A stretch of DNA of 64,000 bases from an uncultured Chthonomonadaceae bacterium (GTDB taxonomy: Bacteria; Armatimonadota; Chthonomonadetes; Chthonomonadales; Chthonomonadaceae). Shown here piece after piece: positions 3,434-61,083 of the stretch. Positions within the stretch are counted from its first letter, which is position 1. The number at the start of each line of letters is the position of its first letter. The notes under the pieces were generated by a model, which was given only the letters and a program-made list of their open reading frames with translations, was not told the origin of the DNA and searched no databases. The position numbers were made by a program, and so were the translations under genes. The DNA lies in the NCBI GenBank assembly GCA_963835065.1, contig CAWIEK010000049.1, forward strand, positions 704,001 through 768,000, read 5' to 3'.

Positions 3434-3477
3434 TAAGCAGTTGATAGTTCTCTTAGTTCCAATTCGTTCAAACAAGA

Positions 3478-3585
3478 CCGTAGGGACACAACATGTTGTG
3501 TCCTCCCGCGTCGTTTAAAAGCAATGGCAATGGAGAGCGCGGACACGGTACCGAAGCGCGGACACAACATATTGTGTCCCTACGG
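3478..3585. repeat. GTAG-type REP doublet (REPIN-like)
   Basis: ccGTAGggacacaacatgttgtgtcc ... ggacacaacatattgtgtccCTACgg: two inverted palindromic units with GTAG/CTAC ends. Confidence 0.8.
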
Positions 3586-3716
3586 CCTTGTTTTTGTGGT
3601 GAAAGACGCTTTAAATAGAGCGGCATTGCCCTTAGTTCATGAATTGGCGTCAACAGGACGCTTGACCGCAGGCCATGAAACCGGCTTTTTATAAGCCGAC
3701 ACAAGCAGGAGCCGAA

Positions 3717-11872: not shown

Positions 11873-11947
11873 GAAGTGATGAATGATGAATGATGAGTGA
11901 TGAACAGAATACCCATTCATCACTCATCATTCATCATTCATCACTTC
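11873..11947. repeat. Perfect 32-bp inverted repeat of TGATGA(A/G) heptamers, 11-nt loop
   Basis: gaagtgatgaatgatgaatgatgagtgatgaa-cagaataccca-ttcatcactcatcattcatcattcatcacttc. Confidence 0.95.
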
Positions 11948-17875: not shown

Positions 17876-17995
17876 GGTAGTCAGTAGTCAGTAGTCAGTA
17901 GTTTTGCAAGCACAGTTTTGCGCGTTGAAAAGCGGAATGTACTCATCCTCCATAACAACGCGCTCCTCTACTGACTACTGACTACTGTCTACTTC
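17876..17995. repeat. Inverted pair of (GTAGTCA)n / (TGACTAC)n arms
   Basis: Read directly in the spacer upstream of metG. Same unit at 27845-27957. Confidence 0.85.
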
Positions 17996-19822: not shown

Positions 19823-20617
19823 TTATTCTTTGGATTGCAGTCTTGCCAGTTCCGCCTTCAACCGCGCGATTTCCGCTTCCGCGCTTTCCGCCCGCTGCGC
19901 TTCCTGCTCGGCCCGATTTGTTTCTTGTTCCGCGCGTTGCGCTTCCTGTTCAGCCCGTAAGGACTCCTGCTCGGCGCGTTGGGACTGCGCTTCCAGCGCG
20001 ACTTCCAATTCGTTATAATCCGGCAGGTACACACCCCGCTGCGCGTCGAAGAACTTCAAGCGGTTGCCCTGTACCGTCAGTTCCAGCCCCAATTGTTCGC
20101 TGTGCAGGCGGCCATCGGCGTCCGGCTCAATGGGCGCGTAGCCGTTTTCACCCAAACGGTAGCCGCGCAGCCGCGTGGAAATGTAGTCCGCTGTCGGGTC
20201 GAACAAAAAGTATTCCGCAACACGCAGCACGTCCTGATACTTTCGGTACTTGCTTTGCGTGTCTTCGTTGCGGGTGCTTTTGGACGTGATTTCGATTACC
20301 ACACTGGGGAAATGATCGCCATTCTCCCACGACTTGTACGAGTCGCGCATCCGCATTTCCACGCCGAAAATCACATAGCAGTCCGGCGAAACAACCGAAC
20401 TTGGCTTACCCTGCTCGTAATAGAGAAAGTTATCGCTGGCAACATACACGTTGGGCTGGGGAGCAAACCACGAGCGCAGGGCCTTGCAGCAGTACGCCGT
20501 CACATCCCAATGTAAGTCGGTCTCGGCCATCGGCTCTCCATCGCTGGTCGGGTAGAAAGGTTCTTTGATTTTGGAAGCGGTTTTTGCCGCAACGGTTGCC
20601 GTCATAGTGCCCTCCAC
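19823..20617 (-). CDS. Uma2 (DUF820) family PD-(D/E)XK endonuclease with C-terminal RAEQEAQ heptads
   Basis: YPTSDGEPMAETDLH, SPDCYVIFGV, VIEITSKSTRNED, EYFLFDP, HSEQLGLEL. Confidence 0.9.
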   Translation of the reverse strand: MEGTMTATVAAKTASKIKEPFYPTSDGEPMAETDLHWDVTAYCCKALRSWFAPQPNVYVASDNFLYYEQGKPSSVVSPDCYVIFGVEMRMRDSYKSWENGDHFPSVVIEITSKSTRNEDTQSKYRKYQDVLRVAEYFLFDPTADYISTRLRGYRLGENGYAPIEPDADGRLHSEQLGLELTVQGNRLKFFDAQRGVYLPDYNELEVALEAQSQRAEQESLRAEQEAQRAEQETNRAEQEAQRAESAEAEIARLKAELARLQSKE

Positions 20618-20731
20618 ATTTCAGGTGTCCCTTCCATGACCACCTGCCTAACTAGTATACTCTTTTTTCGGCGTTCCTTGAAAAGCAAAGCCTTCTCAGT
20701 TCAGGACCGGCGCATATAAACGAGAAAAGAA

Positions 20732-20980
20732 AAAGGATATGTAGAGACAGCGTCGAAATCTTGGCAATGCAGCGCTTCCAGCCCGGTGTCTCGTTGTGTC
20801 AAGTTGTGAATAGAGAGGCGTCGTGGCCTCGTGAGCGTCAGGGCGAACGGGGAGAGTATACAGGCATCTTCTTGCACCTCCCTTCCGGGTTAGTTGAGAG
20901 TTGAGAGTTGAGAGGAACTATGAACTCTCAGCATCCCGCCACCTGGCTAGTTCGCAGCCTAATTAGTAGACTTGATGTAT
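20732..20980 (-). ncRNA. Candidate small RNA / micro-ORF transcript, copy 1 (micro-ORF 20867-20838, MPVYSPRSP)
   Basis: 20732-20886 is closely similar to 30905-31055, including 52 identical bp. Conserved SD GGAAGGGAGG, ATG and TGA, hairpins, 3' U-rich end and upstream ECF-like promoter. Confidence 0.55.
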
Positions 20981-20984
20981 AGTT

Positions 20985-21013
20985 TTAGACGATGATGGAG
21001 GCAGAGAAGGTTC
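20985..21013 (-). promoter_or_regulatory. Putative ECF-sigma promoter GAAC-N18-CGTCTAA
   Basis: Both boxes are conserved in the second copy (31129-31156) while the spacer has diverged. Confidence 0.6.
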
Positions 21014-21222
21014 GTTATTTCTGCTGTTTAATCCGATATTTTTCTACTTTTTTGTGTTCTTTTTGGCTTGGGCAACCTGGAGGAGGGACGCAGGCGCAAC
21101 AGTGGGGGCGAATGTACCTACGATGGGATACGTGTTGAGCATTTTAAATACGCCGGCCTTGCTCCTCAGTTCGAGACACCTTGTTCCGGGCGTTGAAAGC
21201 CCCTGTCGAACGGAAGAACGGA

Positions 21223-22556
21223 CTAATGCCTGTCATAGCGTCGCAGCAACGCTTTCATTGCGGGCGTTTTCGCCTTCTTCATGGCGTCAATAAGCGGTTG
21301 GTCTGGCAGTGTCTCCGTAATCCGGGTAGCCGATCATCCTGATTTTCGCTCCCCGTGACAGCAGCAGGCGAACAGTATGCAAATGATTATTCCTCAACAG
21401 CAAGCGTCAACGCCGTTTTACATTCCCTGTCGTAATGGTTTATATCCGCGCCGTAGTGCAGCAGGAGTTTGACGGTTTCTGCCTCGCCGGCAGAAGCCGC
21501 CGACAAAAGCGCCGTCCAATCGCCTTTCACCGGGTCATTTACTTTCGCGCCTTTTGCCAGCAGCAGTTTCAGAATGGGCAAACGCTTGCTTTCAGGAATT
21601 TCCGCTCCTTCGGCTTGTGTCAGCACCGAACCGCCATAGCCATTACGATTGACATCGGCTCCCGCCGCCACAAGCGTTTTCACCACATCCAGATGCCCGT
21701 TATAAGCCGCAAAGCACAGGGGCGTTCCCAATTTTGCTCCAGGTCTACCTTTGTACCATGCGCCAAGTAGCAGTTTGATGATGGCGTTGTCGCCGTTTCC
21801 CGCAGCCACCGTCATGACCGTAGCAAGTGAGGCTTCATAGATAAAATTGGTTCTGGCATGATGTTCCAACAGCAGGGTTGCTATCGCAACATTTCGGTTT
21901 TGAACGGCATGTACTATGGGAGGAAGCTTGTCAGGATAGTTGCCTTCATCCCACTTTGCACCGCCATCCGCATTAGTTCCATTCTCCAGCAAGTAGTGAA
22001 CCAGTTCCATATTGTCCGCGTAGGCTGCCGCGCATAACAGGTGTTCTCTGTCTACCAGCGATTGCGCCGCGCCCCGCTTCAAAAACATCCACACTAAATC
22101 AGGATGCTTGTACGCGGCAACCACAACGACAAGCGGGCGCGGGTCTTCAATCGGATAATTCTCTTCAGGTTTGGCAAGCGCGTTGATGTCGCTCGCGCCC
22201 CGTTCCAGCAGGTCTTTGATAACGGTTGTATCATCTTTTTCCACTGCCAGTTGCAGCACGGAAGCGCCGTAATCTTGATTCGCTGTTTTCTGCGGACTGC
22301 GCCAATGATTCCAGAGCCGCCTTAACGCCTGCATCGGCGTGGTATCCGGGTAGAGAGGTTCGCGCGTATTTGGGTCCGCGCCCTCGCGCAGCAAAGCCAG
22401 AGCCTGCTTCGTGTTGCCGTGTCGAATAGCGTCACACAACGCGCTGCCCTGCCGCTGCCGATGCAGTTGCCACCCGACGCCAAGCAGCAATACCAATGCA
22501 AGCAATGCCGTGATAATCAGGAACGCGCGAAATTTCATAGTTTTTCTTTGGCTCAA
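21223..22556 (-). pseudogene. Ankyrin-repeat membrane-anchored protein, frameshifted near its 3' end
   Basis: Repeated TPLxxAAxxGH..LLxxGADVN units. ORF stops at 21387 but ankyrin sequence (NHLHTVRLLLSRGA) continues in another frame, and a third frame ends at TAG 21223. Confidence 0.75.
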
Positions 22557-22631
22557 AGCGTCAGAAGCGTATCCTGTCTGTTGCCGGGGATTTTCAATCC
22601 CCGGCCAGTAGTTGATTTGTACATTACGATG

Positions 22632-25600
22632 TTATTGCATGGCTTGTTCAATCGCTTCTTCCAGCGTCAGCGCGCGTCCCTGTTCCCACACTTGCGTAAA
22701 CTCTTCTTCTCCCAAAGCGGCGCGGGCGGCGAGCAGGCGGGGTGTTTCCGCGACATTTTCCGGCGGCATGGGCATCAGGAGGGATTCGCGCAGGGTTTGC
22801 GCGACGGCGAACAACAGCACGGCGCGACGCTCCTGCCCCTGTACCGCGAACATGGCGGCAACGGCATCCAGCGTGTAAAACAGGCCCGGCTTATCCCCCG
22901 ATTGGACGCTGATTGTCAGCCGTTCCTCAAAGCAGCGCCGCGCATAACTGTAATCCTGCTGCGCGGAAGCGGTTTTCCCCAGGCTGTACAGCACGGCGGA
23001 CAATAAATCCCGATACGACAATTCTCTGGCAAGCGTCAGGCTTTCTTCAAACAAAATGCGGGCCGCGTTGTAGTTGCGCAGTTCATGCTCTACGCAGCCC
23101 AATCGGTGCAGCGTTTTGGCGGTCAATTCGCGGTCATGCAGGCTGCGCGCAAGCGCCAGTTCTTCGGCGTACAGGCGGCGCGCGTCCGAAAAGTTTTTGC
23201 GGTAAAAAGCCCGGTGCGCCAGACCATGCAGCGCTCCGGCAATCAAACTCTTATCCCCAAGTTCCGTGCCGATTGCCAGCCCTTCCTCGAAGTGACGCTG
23301 CGCCGCTTCATGGTCACCTTCGTCACTGGCAACCACGCCCAAATAATTCAGCGTGACGGCAACCTGAGTCGCCCCCGCGTGTTCCCGATGGATGGCAAGC
23401 GCCTGCGCGAAATATACCCTTGCCTGCGCATAGTCGTGGCGGTTCCAGGCCATTTGTCCCAGGCTGTGCAGCGCATTAGCGCGTATCGCGGGATCATCGC
23501 GCTCGTTTCCCACGCTGAGACTCTCCTCAAAATAAGCCTGGGCAGTCGCATGGTCGCCCTGAAAGCAGGCCAACATTCCCACGCCGTTCAAAGCTTCCGC
23601 CCGCGTCGGCGTGTTTCCCAAAGGCCGGGTTCGTTCCAAAACGTTGGCGAGAATTTGCCGTCCCAAACTCAAATAGCCGCGCTTGTGCCAGAACCGCCAC
23701 AAGGCGGAAGCCATTTGCAGGCCGCGCTCTGCCGTTTCGGGCTGCGCCAAACTCCATTCCAGCGCTGCACGCAGGTTGTCATGCTCCCTTTCCAGCCAAT
23801 TCAGCCACCATGCCTGCTGCTTCCCCTGCAAGTTCGGATGGGCTTCCTCCGCCAGCCGCAAATAATAGTCCAGATGCCGTTCCCGCGCTTCCTGCGCCCC
23901 TGCCTCATTTTCAAGTTCCTGCCGGCTGTACTGCCGAACCGTTTCCAAAAGCCGATACCGCGCTTCCCCACCCTCCTGTTCATAAATCACCAGGGACCGA
24001 TCCACCAGGCGGGAGAGGCCATCTATTGTCAATTGACGATTGCCGATTGCCGATTGGGTTCCTCCTGTTCCCTGTTCCCTATTGCCTAATTCCTGTTCTT
24101 CTGTCTTCTCTTCTTCTCTTCTTCTCTTCTTCTCTTCTGTTCCCTGTTCCCTGTTCCCTGTTCCCTGCCAGGTCGCTTCCGCCGCTTCCAGCGTCCAGCC
24201 GCCGACGAAGAGAGATAAAATGTGCAGCATGGCGCGATCTTCACTTGAAAGCAGGTCGAAACTCCACTTCATCGCCGCTTCCAGCGTCCGTTGACGGGAC
24301 AAGGCGGTGCGAGGGCCGTTTGTCAGCAGTTGAAAGCGGTCATTGAGGCGGGCGGCGATCTGTTCTACCGGCAATGCTTTCACGCGGGCGGCGGCCAGTT
24401 CCAGAGCGAGGGGGATGCCGTCCAATTGCCGACAGATTTGGATGACGGCAGGCGCGTTTTGAGGGGTCAAAACAAAATCGGCTTGCGCCTGTGTCGCGCG
24501 CTCGACGAAGAGTTGAATGGCCGCGTAGGAATGGAGGAAGTCCGCGAGGGAAGCCCTGTCAATGGGTGTTAAATTCGCGTCCGGCAGCGTAAGGGAAGCG
24601 ACGCGCCACACGCTTTCGCCCTGCACATCCAGGGGCTGCCTGCTTGTCGCCAGAATACGCAGGGCGCGGCACTGTTGGAGCAAAGATTCGGCTAAATCCG
24701 CGCATGTTTCAATGAGATGTTCGCAGTTGTCGAGTATCAGCAGCAGCTGTTTGTCGTTCAGGAATTCCTGCAGGGTTTGCAGCAGTGGGCGATCTGGCGC
24801 TTCGCTTACGCCCAGCATTGCCGCCATCATTTGCGCGATTTGCGCTCCATCCGTCAGGGCCGACAAATCTACGAAACACGCGCCGTCCGAAAAGTTACCG
24901 CTCAGTTCCTCGGCCAGTTGTATTGCCAGCCGGGTTTTGCCAATGCCCCCCGCCCCGGCGAGCGTCAGCAAACGCGCCTGACTCAGCCGCGCTAGAATCG
25001 CTTCCATTTCCTTTTCACGCCCGATAAGGGCCGTCAGGGGAACAGGCAATCGGCGCAGGCGCGGAGAGTTTGGGAACTCCAATGCAGAGGTTTTCGTTGT
25101 TGCCGTATCTGATGAAGCAATTATCAATGCAGCGGTTTCTATTACGGCAGTATCTGGTGACGCAGGTGTTAAGGACGCTGGTTCCAAAGAAGCCGGTTCT
25201 GCTTCCGCTTCCCTTGTCCCGCTTGTTTCCACCGGAGTTTCGTTTTTTGTTTCCGATACTGGGCGCGGCTTATCACGCAATTTTGTCCGAAGCTGCTGAT
25301 ACAGGGTTGTGATTTCCTGTCCGGGAAGCGCGTTCCGCTCACGGTGCAGTTTGAGGCTGAATTCCTGATACGTTTGTAAAGCCGCGTACACATTGCCACT
25401 TTGCGCCAGGGCTTCCATCAGGCCGCGCAGCGCCGACTCGCGCAGGGGATCCACTTCCATGACACGCCGCAGGCAGCGTACCGCTGTTTCCCATTCGTTC
25501 GCCGCCATCGCCATCGCGCTTCGCGCCTGCAAAACCTGCAGATATTGCTGTTCCCGCGCTTCCCGTTCGGCTAACGCCCACGACTCGGTACACTCCTTCA

Positions 25601-26018
25601 GCAACGGCCCCGTATAACAGGCCAGCGCAAGTTCCAATGACGCGGCATCACTCCGCGCGCACAACGCATCCCATTCCGCAACGTCTACAGAAGCGTTTTC
25701 AATAGCAAGGCACAGGGAGTCCGGCGTGGGAGAATGAAGGCGAAAACTCTGCGTTCCCAATGCCTTGCGCAGATTGGTCAACCCGCGGCGCAGGTTGTAC
25801 GCCGCCTGATCTACCGCATGGTCAGGAAACGGCCATAGTTCCTGCGCCAGCCACGCCCGCTTGACTGGTTTCCCTCCCCGCAAGGCAAGCAAAGCCAGCA
25901 GCCACAACTCCTTACGCGAGCGCAGTTTGGGCAGGGACAAGCCATTCACCCGCGCGTCCATTGCGCCGAACAATTTTATTGTCAGGGGAGGAGTTTCGCC
26001 GTCGCTGTCGCGTTCCAT
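22632..26018 (-). CDS. AfsR/SARP-like regulator: wHTH + BTAD + NB-ARC-type ATPase + TPRs
   Basis: DPLRESALRGLM (BTAD), GAGGIGKTRLA, LLILDNCEH, LDGIPLALELAAAR, C-terminal TPRs. Confidence 0.9.
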   Translation of the reverse strand: MERDSDGETPPLTIKLFGAMDARVNGLSLPKLRSRKELWLLALLALRGGKPVKRAWLAQELWPFPDHAVDQAAYNLRRGLTNLRKALGTQSFRLHSPTPDSLCLAIENASVDVAEWDALCARSDAASLELALACYTGPLLKECTESWALAEREAREQQYLQVLQARSAMAMAANEWETAVRCLRRVMEVDPLRESALRGLMEALAQSGNVYAALQTYQEFSLKLHRERNALPGQEITTLYQQLRTKLRDKPRPVSETKNETPVETSGTREAEAEPASLEPASLTPASPDTAVIETAALIIASSDTATTKTSALEFPNSPRLRRLPVPLTALIGREKEMEAILARLSQARLLTLAGAGGIGKTRLAIQLAEELSGNFSDGACFVDLSALTDGAQIAQMMAAMLGVSEAPDRPLLQTLQEFLNDKQLLLILDNCEHLIETCADLAESLLQQCRALRILATSRQPLDVQGESVWRVASLTLPDANLTPIDRASLADFLHSYAAIQLFVERATQAQADFVLTPQNAPAVIQICRQLDGIPLALELAAARVKALPVEQIAARLNDRFQLLTNGPRTALSRQRTLEAAMKWSFDLLSSEDRAMLHILSLFVGGWTLEAAEATWQGTGNREQGTEEKKRRREEEKTEEQELGNREQGTGGTQSAIGNRQLTIDGLSRLVDRSLVIYEQEGGEARYRLLETVRQYSRQELENEAGAQEARERHLDYYLRLAEEAHPNLQGKQQAWWLNWLEREHDNLRAALEWSLAQPETAERGLQMASALWRFWHKRGYLSLGRQILANVLERTRPLGNTPTRAEALNGVGMLACFQGDHATAQAYFEESLSVGNERDDPAIRANALHSLGQMAWNRHDYAQARVYFAQALAIHREHAGATQVAVTLNYLGVVASDEGDHEAAQRHFEEGLAIGTELGDKSLIAGALHGLAHRAFYRKNFSDARRLYAEELALARSLHDRELTAKTLHRLGCVEHELRNYNAARILFEESLTLARELSYRDLLSAVLYSLGKTASAQQDYSYARRCFEERLTISVQSGDKPGLFYTLDAVAAMFAVQGQERRAVLLFAVAQTLRESLLMPMPPENVAETPRLLAARAALGEEEFTQVWEQGRALTLEEAIEQAMQ
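24024..24167. repeat. Composite in-frame repeat insert in the BTAD/ATPase regulator
   Basis: GGGAACA, AGAAGAAG and AATCGGC modules. Peptide [48 protein letters not shown] between LEAAEA and LSRLVDRSLV. Confidence 0.9.
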
Positions 26019-26260
26019 GCCTTCGTGCTGCCTGCGCTTTCTTTCCGCTACGAAACGTCATAGTCTTCCGTGTTCAGCGGCTCAGACGCCTTTTATGGTA
26101 TCAATTCTGATCCGGCTCCTTCCACAGCAGAGGGGCGGGAGTGGACGGGGCGGGCAGATGTGGGAAACCAGTGAAATCCGCAGCGGCAGGGAAGGCAGAG
26201 GAATATACATCTTCTGCTTCCGTTACCTGTTCTGTCTTCCAGGGAACAGGGGTGTCTTCT

Positions 26261-26773
26261 TCAGAGATGATAGTAGACCAAGCCGCACGAGGTGAGCGCG
26301 TACCCAATCAGGGCGCGTTCGCCCAATCCCGGCGACATTAAAAACAGAATAGGAACCGCAACCATGCTGCCGCTGAGGATGATAAGAAACGTGTTGAAGT
26401 TGTCAAAGGCCATCACGCCGAACCATCCCCACACCAGCAGGCAGACGAGTACAAACAGTTCCAAATGCAGACTGCTCGCAGGCGGCGTCATTCCCACTGC
26501 CAGCAGTCCAGGCACAAGCAAAAGCAGCAAAACCGAACGGACGATATAGCCTTTCGCAAACAACTTGCGAACCAGGATACCGATTACGCCGCATAGCGAC
26601 GCAATCAGCCCCCAGGCCATCGGGTTGCCTTCCGCCAATTCAAAACTGACGGCGCGATGCAGGCTATGCGCTCCCGCGATATGCAGCGTCATGGTCAGCG
26701 CCCCGGCAAGCAGCAATAACGTTCCCATCAATTTAGACTGCATCCCGCTATCCTGTACAAACTTGAGGGACAT
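26261..26773 (-). CDS. Hypothetical small membrane protein
   Basis: Several hydrophobic segments. Starts 6 bp after the binding-protein gene. Confidence 0.6.
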   Translation of the reverse strand: MSLKFVQDSGMQSKLMGTLLLLAGALTMTLHIAGAHSLHRAVSFELAEGNPMAWGLIASLCGVIGILVRKLFAKGYIVRSVLLLLLVPGLLAVGMTPPASSLHLELFVLVCLLVWGWFGVMAFDNFNTFLIILSGSMVAVPILFLMSPGLGERALIGYALTSCGLVYYHL

Positions 26774-26779
26774 GCCGTG

Positions 26780-27829
26780 TTAGGAACCCGGTTTGAGAAG
26801 TTTCTGCACGTCGGGCGTGTTGAGGTTGTCTTTGGTGACGACCATCACGCCGCTGTCTTGCAGCTTTTTGTCAATTGTTTCCTTCTTGATGGCTTTGAGG
26901 ACGGTTTCCACGCCCTGATAGCCCATCTGATACGGGTTTTGCACGATCAGCGCCTGAATGGTTCCCTCCTGCAAGCCCTTGATTTCATCTTCGGAACTGT
27001 CGAAGGCGACCAGTTTCACTTTGCCTTCCAATTTCTTCTGCTTCAGCACCTGCGCCGCGCCCTCGCCATTGGGCTGATTGGCCGCGAAAATGCCCGCAAG
27101 GTCTTTGTTGGCGGTCAGCATGTCGTTGGTGCGGTCTACCGCTTTGGTCGGGTCGCCGCCTTCCAGATTGGAAACCACGTGGATGTCGGGATACTTCTTC
27201 ATCGCTTCCAGAAAGCCGCTTTCCCGCTCATCGTTGGAAGCCGAACCTTTTTTGAAAATCAGAATCCCGACATTGCCCTTTTTGCCGATGGCTTCGGCCA
27301 GTTTGTCCGCCGCGAGCTGCCCGCCCTTGACGTTATCGGTAGCGATATAGCAGACGGAATCATCCTTGCCTTTCAGCAGCCCGGAGTCAACCGTCACCGT
27401 GGGAATGCCCGCTGTTTTCGCCGCCGTGACCGGCTGCGCGAGGGCTTCCGAGTCCACTGCCGCTAAGACGATGCCGTCTACCTTGTTGCTGATCTGCGTG
27501 GATACCACGTCTACCTGCTGCGTGACATCGTTCTCCGTTGCAGGACCCTGCCAAATAATTTCGACATTGCCCAGTTTCTTTGCCGCATCGTCCGCGCCCG
27601 CCTTGACTCCAAGCCAAAACGAATTCGCCGTGCCTTTGGGAATCACGGCAATCCGCAAACTCTTGCCCTCACCCCCACTCCCGCCCATATTTCCCCCGGC
27701 TGTCGAATGCGTGGAAGTTCCTCCCGAGGCTGCGCCCCCGCTGCCACTATTCTCCTTCGGACACCCCCACAGCATCACGCCGCACAACCCACTCAACGCC
27801 AACACGCCCATTTTTTGCACTGCTCGCAT
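26780..27829 (-). CDS. Sugar ABC transporter substrate-binding lipoprotein (RbsB-like)
   Basis: LWGC lipobox, IAVIPKGTANSFW, IATDNVKGG, VAFDSS, IVQNPYQMGY. Confidence 0.9.
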   Translation of the reverse strand: MRAVQKMGVLALSGLCGVMLWGCPKENSGSGGAASGGTSTHSTAGGNMGGSGGEGKSLRIAVIPKGTANSFWLGVKAGADDAAKKLGNVEIIWQGPATENDVTQQVDVVSTQISNKVDGIVLAAVDSEALAQPVTAAKTAGIPTVTVDSGLLKGKDDSVCYIATDNVKGGQLAADKLAEAIGKKGNVGILIFKKGSASNDERESGFLEAMKKYPDIHVVSNLEGGDPTKAVDRTNDMLTANKDLAGIFAANQPNGEGAAQVLKQKKLEGKVKLVAFDSSEDEIKGLQEGTIQALIVQNPYQMGYQGVETVLKAIKKETIDKKLQDSGVMVVTKDNLNTPDVQKLLKPGS

Positions 27830-27844
27830 GGTTTCTCCTTGGAA

Positions 27845-27957
27845 AGTAGTCAGTAGTCAGTAGTCAGTAGTCAGTATCTGTCCTACTCATTCCCTTTGCC
27901 AACGCACAAGGCTTTGAGTAGATAAGCATTTCTACTGACTACTCCCTACTGCCTACC
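27845..27957. repeat. Inverted pair of (GTAGTCA)n / degenerate (TGACTAC)n arms
   Basis: Read directly. The right arm runs into the permease stop codon. Confidence 0.8.
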
Positions 27958-28990
27958 CCCTACTCCCCCGTTTTCTCCCCGGCCCGAACCGGTCGTACAG
28001 CACGGCCAGAATTACGATGGCGCCGACGATAGCGCGCTGTAAATCCGGGCTGACATTGTTCAGGGCGCAGCCGTTGCGGATGGTGAACATCAGCAGCGCG
28101 CCAATGATGGTTCCCGGTATGCCGCCCTGCCCGCCAAACAGGGAGGTGCCGCCGATAACAGTGGCGGCAATGGCATACAATTCATAACTGTTGCCCGCAT
28201 CATACGGAGCGCTGCCGGTGCGCGAAATGCTGACGACAGCAGCGATCCCCGCGAGCAGGCCCGACAAAGCGAAAACCGAAATCACGGCTTTGTTCAGCGA
28301 AATGCCGGACAGCCGCGTCGCTTCCCGATTGCCGCCCAGCGCGTACATCGTCCGGCCCCAGCGCGTTCGCGTCAGCAGAATGCTCATCGCTACGGCGACA
28401 CTCACCATAATCAGCACGGCATAAGGAATACCGTCTCTGGCCGGACCACCGAACAATTCGCCATTCCCGAACGTCTCAAACCCCCGCGCAAGCCCGCCGA
28501 TGTTTTTCGATCCCGACAGCAGGCCGCTTGCGCCGTATACCACGCCCATCATGCCCAATGTCACAATGAAGGACGGGATTTTGCCGAACGCAGTAATCAG
28601 ACCGGTCAGCGTTCCTGCCGCCAGGCCGGATACAATCGCCAGCAGCACGGCGGGCCACACGCCCACGCCATGATGCGCCATCGCTTCCGCGGCGGCAACA
28701 CCGGCAAACGCCATCACCGCGCCTACCGACAGGTCTATATTGCCGGAAATAATCACTGCCGTCTGCCCACACGCCAATATCGCAATTACAGCGGACTGAA
28801 CGGCGATATTCTTGAGATTGCCGCGTTCCGCGAAATGCGGGACGCGCAACGCCAGCACAATCCCAAGTAACAGCAGAAACGAGAGCGGAGCCAGCGTGCT
28901 GGACAAGCGCTGCACCCACGTCGCCTGCGCCGGAGATGGCGACAGGGGAGACAATTGCGGATCACTTTGCGGAAGGGACGCCGTCCCCAT
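27953..28990 (-). CDS. Sugar ABC transporter permease (RbsC-like)
   Basis: IISGNIDLSVG, IPSFIVTLG, GRTMYALGGNREATRLSGI, YELYAIAATVIGGTSLFGG. Confidence 0.92.
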   Translation of the reverse strand: MGTASLPQSDPQLSPLSPSPAQATWVQRLSSTLAPLSFLLLLGIVLALRVPHFAERGNLKNIAVQSAVIAILACGQTAVIISGNIDLSVGAVMAFAGVAAAEAMAHHGVGVWPAVLLAIVSGLAAGTLTGLITAFGKIPSFIVTLGMMGVVYGASGLLSGSKNIGGLARGFETFGNGELFGGPARDGIPYAVLIMVSVAVAMSILLTRTRWGRTMYALGGNREATRLSGISLNKAVISVFALSGLLAGIAAVVSISRTGSAPYDAGNSYELYAIAATVIGGTSLFGGQGGIPGTIIGALLMFTIRNGCALNNVSPDLQRAIVGAIVILAVLYDRFGPGRKRGSRG

Positions 28991-29118
28991 AACTCGTGCC
29001 CTTTCCTCTAACAGCAGCCACTCTGCTGACTATGTTTCTGCTTTTCAACAGCAGCGTGTTCACCTGCCTTGCTGCGCAGGCCGTTCGATGCGCCAACAAA
29101 GCAAAATTTGCGCTGCCT

Positions 29119-29163
29119 TGAAAACGTAAACACAATCATAGCAGACTGAACGCGGCCTGTCAA
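29119..29163 (-). promoter_or_regulatory. Sigma70 promoter TTGACA-N17-TATGAT with adjacent LacI-family-like operator
   Basis: Minus strand ttgacaggccgcgttcagtctgctatgat (29163-29135). tgaaaacgtaaaca at 29119-29132 resembles TGWAANCGNTNWCA. Confidence 0.65.
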
Positions 29164-29491
29164 TTCGTTTTTTGATTCCGTCCCTGTACTCAGAACGCGG
29201 GAGACATGCAAACTTATATTTTTCGCTTCGCGCCAACTGAACATTTCGCTTTTCACTGCGTCCATAAGCGCAGGAACCCCATGCGTCCTGCATACTTTGG
29301 ATACTTTCCTTGCGAAAACCTGAACATTTGCGTACGCTCGGCTATTTTAGCAGGATTTTATCATGTCATGCTCTAATGATTAGATTAGTGGTATTCTTAA
29401 CATGAGAATTTTTAATTTTTCTGACGAAGAGTTCATTTGCTGACATCAATGCTATTGAAGATTTGAGACATGTTCGCGAACCCGGATACAC

Positions 29492-30889
29492 ATGCGCCAT
29501 TCTTTGCCACCAACCGTATCTATCTACTTGGACACGCTGCGGCGTCCACGTCTTTTGTTTGCTTCCATTTTGGACGGCTCTGCGCTGGCTTCGGCCTTGA
29601 TGTGGGTTGTCATGCTGGGCATTCTGGCGGGCGTTACAGGCGTTTACGCCGCCCTGCAAGGCAAAACCGGCTTGGGGCAGGACTGGTGGCGCGATTTCCC
29701 CATGAAGCGCGCCGTGTTTTTCTCCGTTTGGTTCTGCCTGACCGATGTGCTGTGGGCAACCTTGCTCACCTGGGCGCTGGCGCGACTGGCGCGTGAAACC
29801 CTGCGCTTCGACTCCCTGCTCACCGTCCTTTGCCTTGCTTCCGCGCCGTGCCTGCTCACCACGCTAACGTTTCCAATGCGCGATTTGAGTTGGACGGCCC
29901 TGCATGTATGGCAGGGGCTGAATATCTTCGTCATTGTGTGGGTATCTATTCTCATTTGTATGGGCGTTCAGGCTTGCCTGAATACTTCGCTCGGCAAAGC
30001 CGCGCAGTGCAGTCTTCCCGCCCTGCTGATTCTATGGGCCATCGGTGTCAGGGCGCATAAAGCCCCGCCCACAAATTTTCGCGCGGCCTGTCGGTGGGAG
30101 CAATGGGAAGGCAGGCATGTTCGCCTGTTCATGCTGCCGGGAAAAAGCCCGAAAGAAGTTTCTTTGCTGGCGCAGGGACTGGACGAGCTGACCGAAAAAG
30201 ACGACGCCGCGCTTGGAGAATCGTCCCTGCCTTTCAAAATAGACTTTTTCTGCTTTGACGACGATTTGCAGCAGCGGCATTTCGCCGGCTCTGCGGAAGA
30301 ACCCACCGACACCGCCCATACCTTCTTCGACTGCGTGACTTTTTCCTACGACACCTGGGAGAACCTTCGCCCGCAAATGGCGCATGAGATTTGCCATGTG
30401 ATTCTGGCGAACCGCCTGACCGACAAGGTGCATGGCCTGCTGGATGAAGGATTGTGCGAGTATGTCGCGCATACGGTAACAGCAGACCCTGACGCGCTTT
30501 CCCCCACGCCCGCCACAGCCCTGCCCCTGCGCGTCCTTGCCCGCCCGGAAGTGTTTTTCGACTGGGATTTATTGCACGAAAAAGGCGTGGAGGACGAAGA
30601 AGCCGATTGGAAGCACTACCGCGCCGCCGAATCGCTGACCGCCTATCTGATTAAACGCTCCGGCATGGCAAAGTTCAAAAATCTGTATTGCCGCTACGCC
30701 CTGCATGGCCGCGACAATGACCCGGACAATGACGAGGGCAAGCAGCTTGCCCATGCGGTTCAGGATGTCTATGGGATTTCGCTTGCCGAACTGGAACATC
30801 AATGGCGCGCGGACGCGGTTTCTGCAATCCTTCCTGACCCGCTGCCTGCGCCGTCCGATTTGCAGCCATCTCATTCTTCGGGTTCGTAA
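29492..30889 (+). CDS. Membrane protein: YIP1-like TM domain fused to a gluzincin-like (peptidase MA) domain
   Basis: About five TM segments, then AHEICH...LDEGLCEY. Confidence 0.6.
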   Translation: MRHSLPPTVSIYLDTLRRPRLLFASILDGSALASALMWVVMLGILAGVTGVYAALQGKTGLGQDWWRDFPMKRAVFFSVWFCLTDVLWATLLTWALARLARETLRFDSLLTVLCLASAPCLLTTLTFPMRDLSWTALHVWQGLNIFVIVWVSILICMGVQACLNTSLGKAAQCSLPALLILWAIGVRAHKAPPTNFRAACRWEQWEGRHVRLFMLPGKSPKEVSLLAQGLDELTEKDDAALGESSLPFKIDFFCFDDDLQQRHFAGSAEEPTDTAHTFFDCVTFSYDTWENLRPQMAHEICHVILANRLTDKVHGLLDEGLCEYVAHTVTADPDALSPTPATALPLRVLARPEVFFDWDLLHEKGVEDEEADWKHYRAAESLTAYLIKRSGMAKFKNLYCRYALHGRDNDPDNDEGKQLAHAVQDVYGISLAELEHQWRADAVSAILPDPLPAPSDLQPSHSSGS

Positions 30890-30904
30890 ATCAATAATAT
30901 CCCG

Positions 30905-31125
30905 AAAGGATATGTAGAGGCATCGTCGAAATCTTGGCAATGCAGCGCTTCCAGCCCGGTGTCTCGTTGTGTCAAATTGTAGGAGAGAGGCGTCGTGACC
31001 TCAGCAGCGTCAAGGCGGATGGCAGTGTTCAGGCATCTTCTTGCGCCTCCCTTCCTGAGTAAGTAGTTGATAGTTGATACGAACTCGAACGTTCAACTTT
31101 CTTGTCTAAATAGTAGACACTTGTA
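30905..31125 (-). ncRNA. Candidate small RNA / micro-ORF transcript, copy 2 (micro-ORF 31036-31010, MPEHCHPP)
   Basis: Paralogue of 20732-20980. Convergent with the upstream + strand gene, so it is not a leader of any CDS. Confidence 0.55.
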
Positions 31126-31128
31126 CTT

Positions 31129-31156
31129 TTAGACGGGTATGTTGTGCAAAAGGTTC
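31129..31156 (-). promoter_or_regulatory. Putative ECF-sigma promoter GAAC-N17-CGTCTAA
   Basis: Minus strand gaaccttttgcacaacatacccgtctaa. Matches copy 1. Confidence 0.6.
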
Positions 31157-31253: not shown

Positions 31254-32081
31254 TTGAGTAACACTTTTATGCCTGGCTGGAAAAACCGCCTGCGTCACCT
31301 GCTCATCGCCCCGGAACCCGCTCTGCCTGCTTCCATTCTGACGGGGCATTTAGAGCGGTTTCGCGGCCTGCCTGCCAACGCTGCCGTGTGCATCAAAGTG
31401 TCGTGCGCGTATGATCTGCCCTACCCTTTTGCGGTTTCGCGCGGGTTTGTCGCGCAGGTTGTGCAGGAGATATATCAGGCGAATTCAGGCGTGAATATCG
31501 CGCTGACGGAAGGGGGAGTCGGAGGACAATCTATCTGCGGCATGGCGTCCCGGCACGGGCTGGACACCCTTGCCAATGCGCGGTTTGAGGATGCTGAAGC
31601 GGTGGAACCAATTTATGCGCCGAACCCGAACCCCCAGCCGTTCCGCGAGGCAGGGTTTTATCTGCCGGCCTGTTGGGTTGAGGCCGACATGCGGATACTG
31701 CTGACAACGTGCAAACTGCGCAGCCATCATTTTCAGCGCTGGTACAGCGGGGGAACGCGCAATCTCATTGGTCTGCTGCCGCGCAGTCGCTATAAACTTT
31801 CCGCAAGCAAGCGCGAGATGCGCAGCGTCATGCACCAGCGGGGCATAGACGCGATGGTTGCCGACCTTTACGCCACCACCGGCCAGAACACGCTGACTAT
31901 TCTCGACGCCCGTCTTGTCGCCCGTCAGGACGAGCATTTCCCCGTCCGCTTTACGCGCAAATTGAACCAGATTGTTGTCGCCGAGGATCCCGCCGAAGCG
32001 GACGAGAGGATTGTGGACGCGCTTCGCCTTCCCTTTACGCCGCCCTACCTCGCCATGATCGCCAAAGTCCGTACAATGTGA
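31254..32081 (+). CDS. DUF362-like protein
   Basis: CIKVS, TEGG and CKLRSH..SGGTRNLIG resemble the DUF362 KxKxH..KNL.G pattern. Start may be ATG 31269. Confidence 0.55.
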   Translation: MSNTFMPGWKNRLRHLLIAPEPALPASILTGHLERFRGLPANAAVCIKVSCAYDLPYPFAVSRGFVAQVVQEIYQANSGVNIALTEGGVGGQSICGMASRHGLDTLANARFEDAEAVEPIYAPNPNPQPFREAGFYLPACWVEADMRILLTTCKLRSHHFQRWYSGGTRNLIGLLPRSRYKLSASKREMRSVMHQRGIDAMVADLYATTGQNTLTILDARLVARQDEHFPVRFTRKLNQIVVAEDPAEADERIVDALRLPFTPPYLAMIAKVRTM

Positions 32082-32094
32082 AAAGGAAGAATTG

Positions 32095-33654
32095 TTAGAA
32101 GCGTCCGGTCAGGGAACGCGCTATGAGCAGCAGGCCGATCAGCGTAACCACTGCGGCGCTGCAAACGGACAAGCCCGGCATCCATTTTGCCCCCGGCGAT
32201 ACGCGCTCCATCAAGCCCCTCGCCCGCATTACTACCAGCCCTAAAATCGTCAGCACGACCGCCAACCCCAGACTGAACGCCACAATCAGCAGCAGGCCAA
32301 AACCGATTCGATGCAGGGCAATTGCGCTTAACATCACGACCAGAGCGGACGGACACGGCAAGGCTCCGCCCGTAATTCCCAATCCGACCAGCGTTCGCAG
32401 CGACAAAGGCCCTGATGCTCCGCGCCGCTGCGTGTAAAACTCTTCTGTATCCGCGTCCAATTCGTTCGCCGCTTGCGCCGAACATTCGTCCTGTGCAGTT
32501 TGCCTTTGCTCCGAACGCCACGCGCCCACGCGATGCCACAACAGCCCCGCGCCCATCCCGGCCACTGCCAGCCCCGACAGGCCGCTGATGACCGGATATA
32601 AATGTTCCGGCACGATCCAGCGCGAAGCCGTCAGCGTAATCAGCCCCAAGGCGAACACGCCCAGCGTATGCGTTATTGTCACCACAAGGCCAAGCAGTAC
32701 AGCATGACGCGCCGTGCCCCGCGTCCCAATCAAATACGCCGCTACCATCGCCTTGCCATGCCCTGGGGACAGCGCATGCAGCGCCCCAAACCCAAACGCC
32801 GACAGCAGCGCCAGCCCCATCAGCCCCGGCGTCAACCCCACCGCCGCAATAGACTGGGTAAACTGATCGCGCGGGGTGTTGGGTGTTGAGGGGGGGGAAA
32901 GTGATGAGTGATGAGTGAGGAGTGATGAGTGAGGATTCTGTTCATCATTCATCATTCCGTGTTCAGCATTTCCTTCTGTTCCCTGTTCCCTGTTCCCTGT
33001 TCCCTGTCTCCTCTTCTCCTTTTCTTCCCCTACCCATGTAAATCGCGCTTCCGTTACCTGCGGCGGGGCTATGGTGGGGTCGGCAGGATAAGTGGTTAGT
33101 TCTTTGCTCTGGTCGGTGGCGGGAACGGAGGAATCGCGCAGGGTGGAGAGGTCGCCTGTCACGACGATTTCTTTCCAGCCGGTACGAACAGGATAGTTTG
33201 AGTCTTTGTAGGTGACGGCAAGCGGGATTTTGGGCGGGGAAGAAGCCGGAGAATCGGCGGTAAAGTCGAGCGTGACGCGCAGGGTTTTCAGCCCGCCCGC
33301 TCCCGGAAGCAGAATCGCATCACGCGGCGTTACCTTTAGCGGAACAGGCTGCTGATTAATCGTCAGAGTCAATTGCCCGCTCAGTTGCACAGACATTTGG
33401 CGCAAGTAAGCCGCCCGCTCCGCATCCGAAACAACGCCGTCCTGATTGGCGTCCAGCCGACTCATTTCCGTCACGGTTGGGATTTCGGCCATGTCCAGCA
33501 CGAAATGCCCTTCGATACGATCCGCCTGCGCTATAAGCCGCGTGTAATGGTTGATGGAAAAATTGCCCATCGGATGCGCAATCACCATCCGCGCCATCAA
33601 CAGCCATGCCAAACTCAACAGGCAGACACGCCAAATTTTACAGTTAGGTTTCAT
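32095..33654 (-). CDS. HoxN/RcnA-type nickel/cobalt transporter-like protein with N-terminal exported domain
   Basis: AHPMGNFSINHY, GALHALSPGHGKAMVAAYL, TITHTLGV, GGALPCPSALVV. Confidence 0.85.
   Translation of the reverse strand: MKPNCKIWRVCLLSLAWLLMARMVIAHPMGNFSINHYTRLIAQADRIEGHFVLDMAEIPTVTEMSRLDANQDGVVSDAERAAYLRQMSVQLSGQLTLTINQQPVPLKVTPRDAILLPGAGGLKTLRVTLDFTADSPASSPPKIPLAVTYKDSNYPVRTGWKEIVVTGDLSTLRDSSVPATDQSKELTTYPADPTIAPPQVTEARFTWVGEEKEKRRQGTGNREQGTEGNAEHGMMNDEQNPHSSLLTHHSSLSPPSTPNTPRDQFTQSIAAVGLTPGLMGLALLSAFGFGALHALSPGHGKAMVAAYLIGTRGTARHAVLLGLVVTITHTLGVFALGLITLTASRWIVPEHLYPVISGLSGLAVAGMGAGLLWHRVGAWRSEQRQTAQDECSAQAANELDADTEEFYTQRRGASGPLSLRTLVGLGITGGALPCPSALVVMLSAIALHRIGFGLLLIVAFSLGLAVVLTILGLVVMRARGLMERVSPGAKWMPGLSVCSAAVVTLIGLLLIARSLTGRF
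32885..33030. repeat. Composite in-frame repeat insert in the transporter linker
   Basis: Peptide [48 protein letters not shown]. Near-copy of the hemA insert. Confidence 0.9.
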
Positions 33655-46010: not shown

Positions 46011-47468
46011 TTGCATCTTGTGTTGGTTGGAATCAGTCATCACGAAGCGCCGATTGAACTGCGCGAGCGGCTCAGTTGCGCGCCCCATGCGCTGGGCGGA
46101 GCGCTGTCGCATTTGTCCGGCTGCCCCGGCGTGGCGGAGGGCGTGATACTGTCCACCTGCAATCGCATGGAAGTGTACGCGGCGGTTCACGGCGCGAATG
46201 TGGAGGACGCTTACCACGCGCTGACACAGCACCTTGCCGCGTTTCATAAATTACCGGAAGCCGCGTTTGAAGCGCGATTGTACTGCAAGTTTGAGGCTGA
46301 CGCTACCGCGCACCTTTTACGGGTTTCCGGCGGATTGGACTCGCTGGTGCTGGGCGAACCGCAGATATTGGGGCAGGTGAAAGCCGCGCTGAAAGCCGCG
46401 CAAACCGCCGGGTCGTGCGGGCCGATACTTTCCAAACTGTTTACGTTCGCGCTGGCTGCCGGCAAGCGCATCCGGGCGGAAACGGGGTTGGGCAAAGGCG
46501 GCTTTTCCATTGGCCATGCCGCAGTGGGGTTGGCGCAACGCATACTCGACGATTTCTCCCGCGCCCGCGTTTTGATTCTGGGCGCAGGCAAAATGAGCGA
46601 AGTGACCGCCGCGCATTTGAAGCGCAATGGCGTCCAATTCGTCGTTGTCGCCAATCGCACCTTTGACAAAGCCGTGTCGCTGGCGCAGCGATTGGGCGGG
46701 CAGGCCATACAGTACGATCAGTTTTTAGACGAGATGGTACGCGCCGATATTGTAATCTCTTCCACAGCCGCTCCCCACCCCATTCTGCGCCGCGAGATGC
46801 TGGCTCCCGTGATGAAGAAGCGCCGGGGCAAGCCCCTGTTCCTGATTGACATCGCCCTGCCCCGCGACATTGACCCGGATGTGAACGGCCTGGAAAACGT
46901 GTACCTGCGCAACATTGACGATTTGCAGGAATACATGGCGCAGGACGCCCGCGCCCGCGCCGGGGAAGTGGCGCAGGCGGAGCAGATCGTTACGGCGGAA
47001 ACCGCTTCCTTTTTAACCTGGCTGCGGCATCGGGGCGCGGTTCCCATCATTGCCAGCCTGCGCTCCCATCTGGACGACATGACTCAGGAACGGCTGGATA
47101 TTCTGCGCGCCCGCCTGGGAACCGTCAACGAACGCGACTGGCAAATCATCGAAACCCAAATGCGCGCCCTGATGGATCAAGTCGCCCTCGAACCCACCCG
47201 CCGCCTCAAACGCGCCATGCAGACGCCCCATCCCGACGCGCCCAAACCCGCCCAATACGACCTGCTGGAAGCGACGCGAGAGTTGTTCGGATTAGAGGAA
47301 GAAAAGAAGAAGAGAAGAAAAGGAGAAAAGGAGACAGAAGAGGGAACAGAAGGCAATGCTGAACGCGGAATGATGAGTGATGAATGGGATGCAAATTCAT
47401 CACTCATCACTCATCACTCATCACTTTCCTCCCCCTCAACCCTGCTGGACGCGGAGGCGCTGCCATGA
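46011..47468 (+). CDS. hemA: Glutamyl-tRNA reductase
   Basis: ILSTCNRMEVY, GLDSLVLGEPQILGQVK, GAGKM, IDIALPRDID. Confidence 0.96.
   Translation: MHLVLVGISHHEAPIELRERLSCAPHALGGALSHLSGCPGVAEGVILSTCNRMEVYAAVHGANVEDAYHALTQHLAAFHKLPEAAFEARLYCKFEADATAHLLRVSGGLDSLVLGEPQILGQVKAALKAAQTAGSCGPILSKLFTFALAAGKRIRAETGLGKGGFSIGHAAVGLAQRILDDFSRARVLILGAGKMSEVTAAHLKRNGVQFVVVANRTFDKAVSLAQRLGGQAIQYDQFLDEMVRADIVISSTAAPHPILRREMLAPVMKKRRGKPLFLIDIALPRDIDPDVNGLENVYLRNIDDLQEYMAQDARARAGEVAQAEQIVTAETASFLTWLRHRGAVPIIASLRSHLDDMTQERLDILRARLGTVNERDWQIIETQMRALMDQVALEPTRRLKRAMQTPHPDAPKPAQYDLLEATRELFGLEEEKKKRRKGEKETEEGTEGNAERGMMSDEWDANSSLITHHSSLSSPSTLLDAEALP
47295..47441. repeat. Composite in-frame repeat insert near the hemA 3' end
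   Basis: Peptide EEEKKKRRKGEKETEEGTEGNAERGMMSDEWDANSSLITHHSSLSSPST. Confidence 0.9.
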
Positions 47469-59918: not shown

Positions 59919-60953
59919 ATGAAGGCTCCTTTATCCAATCCGCCGCTGACGAATGAAATGCCGCCTGTGGCGCATGGCGAACCAACCCATGCCCTTGTAA
60001 CTCCCGCGCCTGTAAATGCTGTGCCTGTAAATGCCGTGACTGGATACTCTTCTGCGCGTCTGCTTCCCGCTATGGTGAAAGCCATGCGACTGAAGCAGGC
60101 TCCCAAAAATTTGTTTGTGTTCGCCGCATTGGTGTTTGCGGGCAAACTGTTTAACGGGCACATGCTTGCTCTGACGGTTGCCGCGTTCGCGCTGTTTACC
60201 CTTGCGGCGGGCAGCGTTTACCTGTTCAACGACATTCTGGATGTGGAGCAGGACCGGCAGCACCCTACCAAATGCAGGCGTCCCATCGCCTCCGGCGCGT
60301 TGCCCATCGGCGTTGCATGGGCGGAGTTGGCAGTGCTGGCGGTCGGCAGTTTAAGCGCGGCGTTCTGGCTGCGCCCCGGCTTCGGCTTCGCATTGCTGGC
60401 GTATGTCGCGCTGCAAATCGCGTACTGCCTGAAATTAAAGCATGTTGTTTTGATTGACGTGTTTACGATTGCGATGGGCTTCGTGCTGCGGGCAGTTGCG
60501 GGCGCATTGGTAATTAACGTCAGTTTCTCGCACTGGCTGCTGCTGTGTACGCTCCAGCTCGCGCTGTTTTTAGGGTTCGGCAAGCGTCGGCAGGAGATCG
60601 TTCTGCTTGGCGAAGGCGCGGGCAAGCACCGCGCCAATCTTGACGAGTACAGCAAGCCCCTGCTGGATCAGATCATCAACATCGTGGTCGGCGTCACGAT
60701 TGTCTGCTATTCCGTTTACAGCGTGGAATCCGACACGGCGCACCTGCACCCGCATCTATGGGTCACGGTTCCGATTGTCATCTACGCCCTGTTCCGCTAC
60801 ATGTATTTGGTGTACCAGAAGGGCTGGGGCGGCGCTCCCGACGAAGTGCTGCAAAAAGACCGCGTCCTACAGGCGACAATCGTAGTCTGGTTCCTCGTCG
60901 TGATGCTGATATTCAAGTTCGATACCGGAATGTGGTCGGCGATACAGCGGTAA
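59919..60953 (+). CDS. UbiA-family decaprenyl-phosphate phosphoribosyltransferase-like protein
   Basis: KNLFVF, YLFNDILD.E.DR.HPTK..RPIASG, LKHVVLIDV, GFVLRAVAG, KRRQE. Confidence 0.85.
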   Translation: MKAPLSNPPLTNEMPPVAHGEPTHALVTPAPVNAVPVNAVTGYSSARLLPAMVKAMRLKQAPKNLFVFAALVFAGKLFNGHMLALTVAAFALFTLAAGSVYLFNDILDVEQDRQHPTKCRRPIASGALPIGVAWAELAVLAVGSLSAAFWLRPGFGFALLAYVALQIAYCLKLKHVVLIDVFTIAMGFVLRAVAGALVINVSFSHWLLLCTLQLALFLGFGKRRQEIVLLGEGAGKHRANLDEYSKPLLDQIINIVVGVTIVCYSVYSVESDTAHLHPHLWVTVPIVIYALFRYMYLVYQKGWGGAPDEVLQKDRVLQATIVVWFLVVMLIFKFDTGMWSAIQR

Positions 60954-61069
60954 ATGATGAGTGATGAGTGATGAATGATGAATAGAAGAAACAGAGGCGG
61001 CTTTGCGCGTTGAACGATAAAGCATCCAGCAGTATTTACTCATCATTCATCATTCATCACTCATCATTT
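60952..61069. repeat. Inverted pair of TGATGA(G/A) heptamer arms
   Basis: 60952-60984 vs 61037-61069. Begins in the stop codon. Confidence 0.9.
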
Positions 61070-61083
61070 CCTCGGAGGTTGCT

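Follow-up and report, generated by a model that had tools for sequence, protein, structure and literature searches.

The stretch of DNA analyzed here (the window) comprises 64,000 nucleotides of contig CAWIEK010000049.1 (positions 704,001 to 768,000) from an uncultured Chthonomonadaceae bacterium (assembly GCA_963835065.1). Among genes for a Uma2 putative endonuclease (19823-20617), an ankyrin-repeat protein (21387-22556) and a DUF362 protein (31254-32081), and an open reading frame (ORF; 29492-30889) with no Pfam or NCBIfam match, it holds two minus-strand copies of a short unit, centered on repeats at 20732-20886 and 30905-31055. Each carries a promoter-like motif, a leader, a Shine-Dalgarno (SD) sequence, a micro-ORF of eight or nine codons, a hairpin and a 3′ stem-loop. 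We find that this unit is repeated throughout the genome, with a micro-ORF whose ending is conserved by residue and whose stop codon keeps a fixed distance from the hairpin. Copy 1 lies within a MITE (a miniature transposable element with inverted repeats). The features are as follows:

21162..21171, no strand: left copy of the 10-bp target-site duplication (TSD), one mismatch against the right copy
20702..21161, minus: MITE with copy 1, 460 bp, ISAs1-type ends; sharp boundaries common to about 17 copies, terminal inverted repeats (TIRs) and TSD, empty site in the related genome G002
21143..21161, minus: left TIR of copy 1
20985..21013, minus: copy 1 promoter-like motif (GAACCT / CGTCTAA), −35 box 21008-21013, −10 box 20985-20991
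20887..20971, minus: copy 1 5′ leader from a conserved GTCTAC, with an optional hairpin and heptamer repeats (20891-20911); length differs between copies
20877..20886, minus: copy 1 SD
20838..20867, minus: copy 1 micro-ORF MPVYSPRSP-UGA, ATG at 20867
20831..20837, minus: copy 1 7-nt spacer, fixed in length, variable in sequence
20815..20830, minus: copy 1 hairpin (helix 1), pairing kept in 99% of cells, with a single compensatory pair
20738..20792, minus: copy 1 3′ stem-loop, outer helix 20788-20792/20744-20748, inner helix 20776-20782/20752-20758
20762-20775, minus: copy 1 near-invariant loop
20721..20737, minus: copy 1 U-rich tract, predicted 3′ end (mean of 8 T in the first 14 nt past the conserved end)
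20702..20720, minus: right TIR of copy 1
20692..20701, no strand: right copy of the TSD
31129..31156, minus: copy 2 promoter-like motif, −35 box 31151-31156, −10 box 31129-31135
31046..31055, minus: copy 2 SD
31010..31036, minus: copy 2 micro-ORF MPEHCHPP-UGA, ATG at 31036
30987..31002, minus: copy 2 hairpin, 7 nt past the stop
30911..30965, minus: copy 2 3′ stem-loop, near-invariant loop 30935-30948
30880..30892, minus: next to copy 2, the end repeat of a different, second type of MITE, overlapping the 3′ end of the convergent ORF 29492-30889

The repeats and every motif that a sequence-only reading of the window had listed are present, including an identical run of 52 bp (20751 and 30924). 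The 1-nt indel that it placed after the stop codon is real but lies past the hairpin; the spacer from stop to hairpin is 7 nt in both copies. The view of the two copies as a duplicated pair did not survive a profile search of the host genome (G000) with nhmmer, in which they proved to be two of 162 copies, all full length, with a minimum score of 119 bits and no fragments. Two genus-mates, G001 and G002, also carry the unit: exact-core pattern counts were 161 in G000, 47 in G002 and 7 in G001, and a covariance model gave 47 in G002 and 13 in G001. Run on relatives with stricter filters and only 22 or 82 candidates scored per genome, that model had no matches in the 39 other genomes of the family (2 of 41 positive) or in 150 genomes of the phylum, and a DNA search of 60 relatives returned the two genus-mates and one 24-nt heptamer match. 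Pattern scans gave five metagenome matches and one viral match, all due to chance, as were two of three outside matches in a genome-collection scan (37 of 64 parts). The third, in an actinobacterial bin (L131/L142; L numbers denote loci), is a true copy that lacks SD and promoter and is the only one in that bin. At L142:1430-1620 it is fused between unrelated sequence, including an ORF resembling an actinobacterial penicillin-binding protein, with an 8-nt direct repeat on both sides; it is probably a chimeric assembly join, possibly a transfer. That the family is undescribed, as had been supposed, agrees with Rfam 15, which has no match in the window at the gathering score and none over the unit in four loci at E values up to 5. 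Searches of the open-access literature, to which subscription papers and supplements with possible motif catalogues do not belong, brought up no description of the unit. Its known range is one uncultured genus, and the function discussed below is predicted from sequence.

Judged by how the copies differ, the micro-ORF is under selection as protein, its C-terminal R-x-P-stop being kept at the residue level. When spacers were counted with the hairpin alone as anchor (214 of the 222 known copies, less five without a hairpin match), the stop lay exactly 7 nt 5′ of the hairpin in 202 of 209 copies and 6, 8 or 9 nt away in the other seven. The stop codons of the 202 are TGA (171), TAA (30) and TAG (1, a premature stop); release factor 2 (RF2) reads TGA and TAA, so nearly all of them are readable by RF2. 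The last codon is Pro in 200 copies, with all four Pro codons in use, and codon −3 is Arg, not Asn, in 183. The third base of codon −2 is G in 193 of the 202, which is at odds with a coding role alone. On a FastTree phylogeny of the 202 copies, the last codon changed 33 times and its residue only twice, the −3 Arg codon 41 times and its residue eight times, and the stop codon 13 times, each time to another stop. ORF length changed 24 times and broke the frame in five (195 copies parsed, the seven unparsed being assigned the commonest length), whereas of 37 length changes in the non-coding linker 29 altered the phase. A frameshift or read-through product is rejected, since the linker moves from one phase to another without constraint. 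Little constraint is seen at the last three positions of the spacer either, with 66-80 changes each. Forms of 15-16 codons with GTG, CTG or TTG starts, found in G001, still end in RPP-stop.

It had been proposed that ribosome loading, rather than the peptide, is what matters in this unit. Conserved translation bears out the first part, but an irrelevant peptide is not supported, as its C-terminus is conserved by residue. The same conservation would fit a released micropeptide as the product, with a tail that merely stabilizes its mRNA, but the N-terminal part and the length of the ORF vary freely (8-16 codons), and the fixed 7-nt spacer and the invariant loop described below make sense only for an RNA or a ribosome, so that we hold this explanation to be very unlikely.

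With the Pro codon in the P site, positions +4 to +6 are taken up by the stop codon and +7 to +13 by the spacer, the hairpin beginning at +14. The bacterial mRNA channel extends 11 nt beyond the first P-site base (+1), and the inhibitory stem-loops studied in the same work lie 1-2 nt closer than the hairpin here (PMC7282821). A ribosome at termination would then come to rest right before the hairpin without opening it. Ribosome arrest with a stop codon in the A site is described for x-[S/A]-P-stop motifs (PMC10987492), in which the C-terminal motif likewise stands directly before the stop and residues −3 and −1 matter, just as Pro (200/202) and Arg (183/202) are kept here. Those peptides differ in being encoded by long upstream ORFs with an N-terminal localization signal, located upstream of secA or secDF in Bacteroidota, whereas the ORF of this unit is 8-16 codons long with Arg at −3, regulates no gene downstream and exists in 162 copies. 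The RAPP/RxPP arrest peptides ApdA and ApdP share R-x-P at the P site, and a minimal RxPP is described as sufficient for stalling, but they need an A-site Pro (PMC10951233), where here a stop codon follows. A further short peptide has been described that blocks RF2 (PMC11890864). Known arrest peptides regulate the gene that follows. This unit keeps a motif of that type in 162 copies and has no such gene to act on, an indication that the complex of stalled ribosome and RNA is itself the product. We favor, at a little short of even chances, the reading that the unit encodes a stress-induced RNA predicted to keep its 3′ domain folded while parking a ribosome at R-x-P-stop, and that it has been amplified for dose.

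Whole predicted transcripts fold no better than shuffles (z of 0.32 and −0.07), which makes the structure a local one. An alignment of 42 homologs has three short helices paired in 97.6% of 672 cells, with three compensatory pairs and slid controls at 35-65%, counts that are inflated by the relatedness of the sequences. Read as antisense RNA the same helices are paired in 82.3%, which marks the minus strand as the structured one. The better plus-strand folding that had been pointed out is true for the 63-nt domain, but the antisense partner proposed along with it is not supported by these helices, and a run described as boxA-like varies among homologs. The inner helix presents a 17-nt loop, the first 14 nt of which are invariant save for a C/U variation that is common at one site and a single change, in a degenerate copy of G002. 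Among 161 distinct G000 copies no rare substitution falls on 20 loop-region sites, against 21 over 30 neighboring conserved sites, despite a median of 17 substitutions between nearest copies over the aligned stretch with flanks; each copy is thus under selection or is corrected by conversion.

An invariant sequence in a terminal loop, with one common C/U variant that would keep its pair with G, could also be read as the 14-nt antisense mRNA seed of a dual-function base-pairing small RNA (sRNA) of the attenuator-derived kind, the parked ribosome setting only its stability or processing. We consider this unlikely, as no excess of targets was found near start codons (57 windows reached −20 kcal/mol, dinucleotide shuffles gave 26-57 and ORF interiors 78, in a scan of every second ORF with crude starts), pairing of the loop with 16S rRNA was not above shuffles, and 160 copies far exceed the need of seed sRNAs. 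A likeness to tRNA-Gly(GCC) around the anticodon loop (15 of 17 identical, 0 of 60 shuffles as good) is borderline and the anticodon stem is not formed; in a gapped test, two G000 copies were equaled by 4-5 of 100 shuffles and six other copies by 22-68 of 100. The LhrC sRNA of Listeria is reportedly present in fewer than ten copies, and we know of no micro-ORF or spacing rule for it. Its likeness to the unit is that of several stress-induced copies of one small RNA (PMC4132741). The attenuator-derived rnTrpL/peTrpL system resembles the unit in that a micro-ORF is translated from a short RNA whose action goes beyond cis control, but rnTrpL is the leader of a trp operon (PMC7968998, PMC6614838), whereas the unit leads nothing and has no run of sensing codons, and a target for it was not found.

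The two boxes in front of the unit (GAACCT / CGTCTAA) are presumably of the extracytoplasmic function (ECF) type. The motif has 146 sites in the genome, 134 of which lie in front of the unit, the remaining 12 being in line with control patterns (6-11), and the boxes are 16 or 17 nt apart in 134 of 138 parsed copies. Judging from the sequence of the leader, its conserved GTCTAC is likely close to the transcription start site. Instead of these boxes, 13 copies in G002 and one in G000 carry a sigma-70-like motif, and a third form is found in five G001 copies. At one shared site (L040) two species have different promoters on the same RNA. As promoter types have been swapped while the RNA was kept, transcription seems to be maintained by more than one means. 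The third form (L088, L090, L092, L095 and L096) lies about 280 nt 5′ of the core, with a long leader hairpin and a word that resembles an NrdR box, given what we take to be the NrdR consensus. A link to NrdR is unsupported: inspection of reductase loci brought up no such box, though the true starts of the genes may fall beyond the regions inspected.

The 460-bp element around copy 1 has 19-bp TIRs and a 10-bp TSD with one mismatch, and the orthologous site in G002 is empty, the flanking genes being adjacent with one TSD length between them. A 10-bp TSD with at most one mismatch flanks 7 of 13 TIR-bounded copies. The same TIRs occur at two G002 loci (L145 and L146), the protein of L145 matching the ISAs1 model NF033564 with 402 bits; an ISAs1 transposase of this type was not found in G000, which is 92% complete. 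The passages of PMC3281130 on ISAs1 ends give no TSD data. The end repeat of a second MITE type lies 3′ of 27 copies, copy 2 included. Empty MITEs of this second type, 80-90 bp long with short TWA-like flanks that we take to be IS5-like, are found in G000 at C1:163933-164013, C37:205416-205506 and C66:327-407. Of the 47 copies in G002, only 13 have a flank in common with one in G000, and for two the corresponding G000 site is cleanly empty. The flanks of L062, a G002 copy, map to two different G000 copies (C1, C44), which suggests rearrangement by recombination between copies.

An insertion-sequence end had been named as the finding that would speak against a new RNA family. For copy 1, ISAs1-type ends are indeed present, and they explain spread; the conserved interior is left unexplained by them, and we conclude that the MITEs are carriers. 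That the interior is kept merely as a copying aid of a selfish MITE family, with no gain to the host, would be in line with the TIRs, TSD and empty site of copy 1, with the same TIRs around the G002 ISAs1 transposase and with the second end beside 27 copies. However, when matched loosely, both ISAs1-type ends occur in only 17 of the 162 copies, one in 27 and neither in 118. The ends decay while the interior does not. Moreover, private mutations avoid the loop, which is not expected from copying alone, and one RNA is common to three promoter types and two carriers. We therefore regard a purely selfish family as decidedly unlikely. Copy 1 has the hallmarks of an ISAs1-family MITE (MITEAba12 is reportedly an example of a bacterial MITE; PMC6382973), but most copies of the unit lack MITE ends, and its cargo is conserved and under codon-level selection.

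In 91 of 161 copies the gene that comes next downstream lies on the opposite strand. Where the unit sits between co-directional genes it is antisense in 53 cases and sense in 27 (P = 0.005, with a crude ORF caller), and the same-strand downstream genes are unrelated, all of which agrees with the earlier description of a stand-alone unit that is not a cis leader. Action in trans is plausible; the spacing of the copies also fits a local role. The gaps between copies are more even than random (coefficient of variation 0.74 against 0.97), with one pair closer than 8 kb where 20 are expected, 4 against 9.6 at 8-12 kb, and normal numbers from about 20 kb. The sole pair below 8 kb is a near-identical 1.1-kb tandem with ATT replacing ATG. 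Close pairs are lacking in both orientations (4 against 14 and 2 against 14 expected) and for MITE-borne copies, and no such deficit exists in four other repeat families. G002 has no pair below 12 kb where 3.2 are expected (P = 0.03; P = 0.11 at 8 kb), although its overall gap evenness is not significant (P = 0.62). A copy that comes to lie within about 8-10 kb of another appears to be lost or never fixed.

This pattern is better explained by a local chromosome role than by the reading we favor. Each copy would act on its own 10-20 kb during transcription, for example as a supercoil-domain barrier or anchor through a paused polymerase and a parked ribosome, or as an RNA element that modifies the polymerase for read-through, and one copy per domain would be enough; the apparent purifying selection on every copy is also in keeping with it. 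We nevertheless find a local role rather unlikely, given that copy density differs about tenfold within the genus (162, 47 and 13), that sites turn over as seen from the few shared flanks in G002, that evenness in G002 is not significant overall, and that recombination or promoter interference could give the same gap.

In the ribosome-parking reading, which we favor, a stress (ECF) sigma factor would switch the mini-genes on, and we infer that each is transcribed as a discrete RNA. Induction would yield RNA from about 160 loci at once, enough to equal the ribosomes in number within minutes; the many copies would be accounted for in this way. The strong SD would load a ribosome, peptidyl-RxP-tRNA would slow release by RF2 at UGA/UAA, and the parked ribosome would halt 1-2 nt before the hairpin, such that the hairpin and 3′ domain stay folded. 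The loop would probably bind a protein or RNA partner that holds or releases the parked ribosome, and the net effect would be a transient sequestration of ribosomes and RF2. New copies would be placed partly by ISAs1-type and other MITE ends, as observed for copy 1. More tentatively, the unit may represent a new class of RNA gene, a ribosome-parking RNA present once per 10-50 kb with seemingly its own sigma factor and a Pro-stop stall at a fixed distance from a folded domain, which could withdraw or reposition much of the translation machinery within minutes and possibly organize the nucleoid by domain; we think this possible, with the chances clearly against it. If true, there would be an RNA-based route to ribosome sequestration alongside protein hibernation factors, the unit would provide a natural 8-residue stop-arrest cassette, and the 8-10 kb exclusion would make gene-spacing constraints of the nucleoid measurable.

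Several observations weigh against ribosome parking. A diffusible product alone does not predict the spacing of the copies. Ten G000 copies and several G001 copies end in L-P-P or H-P-P and not in R-x-P, and known stop-arrest peptides are much longer (about 100 residues for uA_NSP-stop), while 8-9 residues fill the tunnel only partly. In 141 of 150, 22 of 39 and 9 of 13 copies the SD is predicted to be paired with the C-rich ORF that it serves, so part of the ORF conservation may be structural and loading may be conditional. No partner of the loop was found among mRNA start regions, 16S rRNA and tRNAs, where nothing was clearly above shuffles save for the borderline tRNA-Gly(GCC) likeness; a 23S rRNA was not found. 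The pattern that places 134 of 146 promoter-like sites in front of the unit was derived from the elements themselves. A sigma-gene search gave 51 region-4 matches in G000, and none of 36 sigma-gene upstream regions (43 listed, seven without a called ORF) reaches the 5th-percentile score of the elements. Parts of the unit are found in contigs from seven of the eight metatranscriptome runs used, with three more left aside. This is a weak hint of transcription, from either strand, at depth 2-7 in runs that were chosen by this stretch and to which DNA may contribute; the promoter is not covered, missing coverage being uninformative, and several contigs continue 48-173 nt beyond the U-tract.

In one of these runs (X10), a 151-nt contig of depth 2 on window positions 20717-20919 passes from the leader to the 3′ domain with SD, ORF and hairpin missing; it may stem from a deleted DNA copy, template switching or processing. 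The heptamer repeats of the optional 5′ leader are of the same kind as those in the heptamer-repeat arms and fold-back elements that occur elsewhere in the window, both intergenic and in frame within genes (11873-11947, 17877-17902, 27832-27871, 32885-33032, 47293-47440 and 60949-61073). An inverted repeat resembling repetitive extragenic palindromes, with a GTAGGGACACAAC arm (window 3470-3593), has 57 sites genome-wide with random spacing and served as a spacing control.

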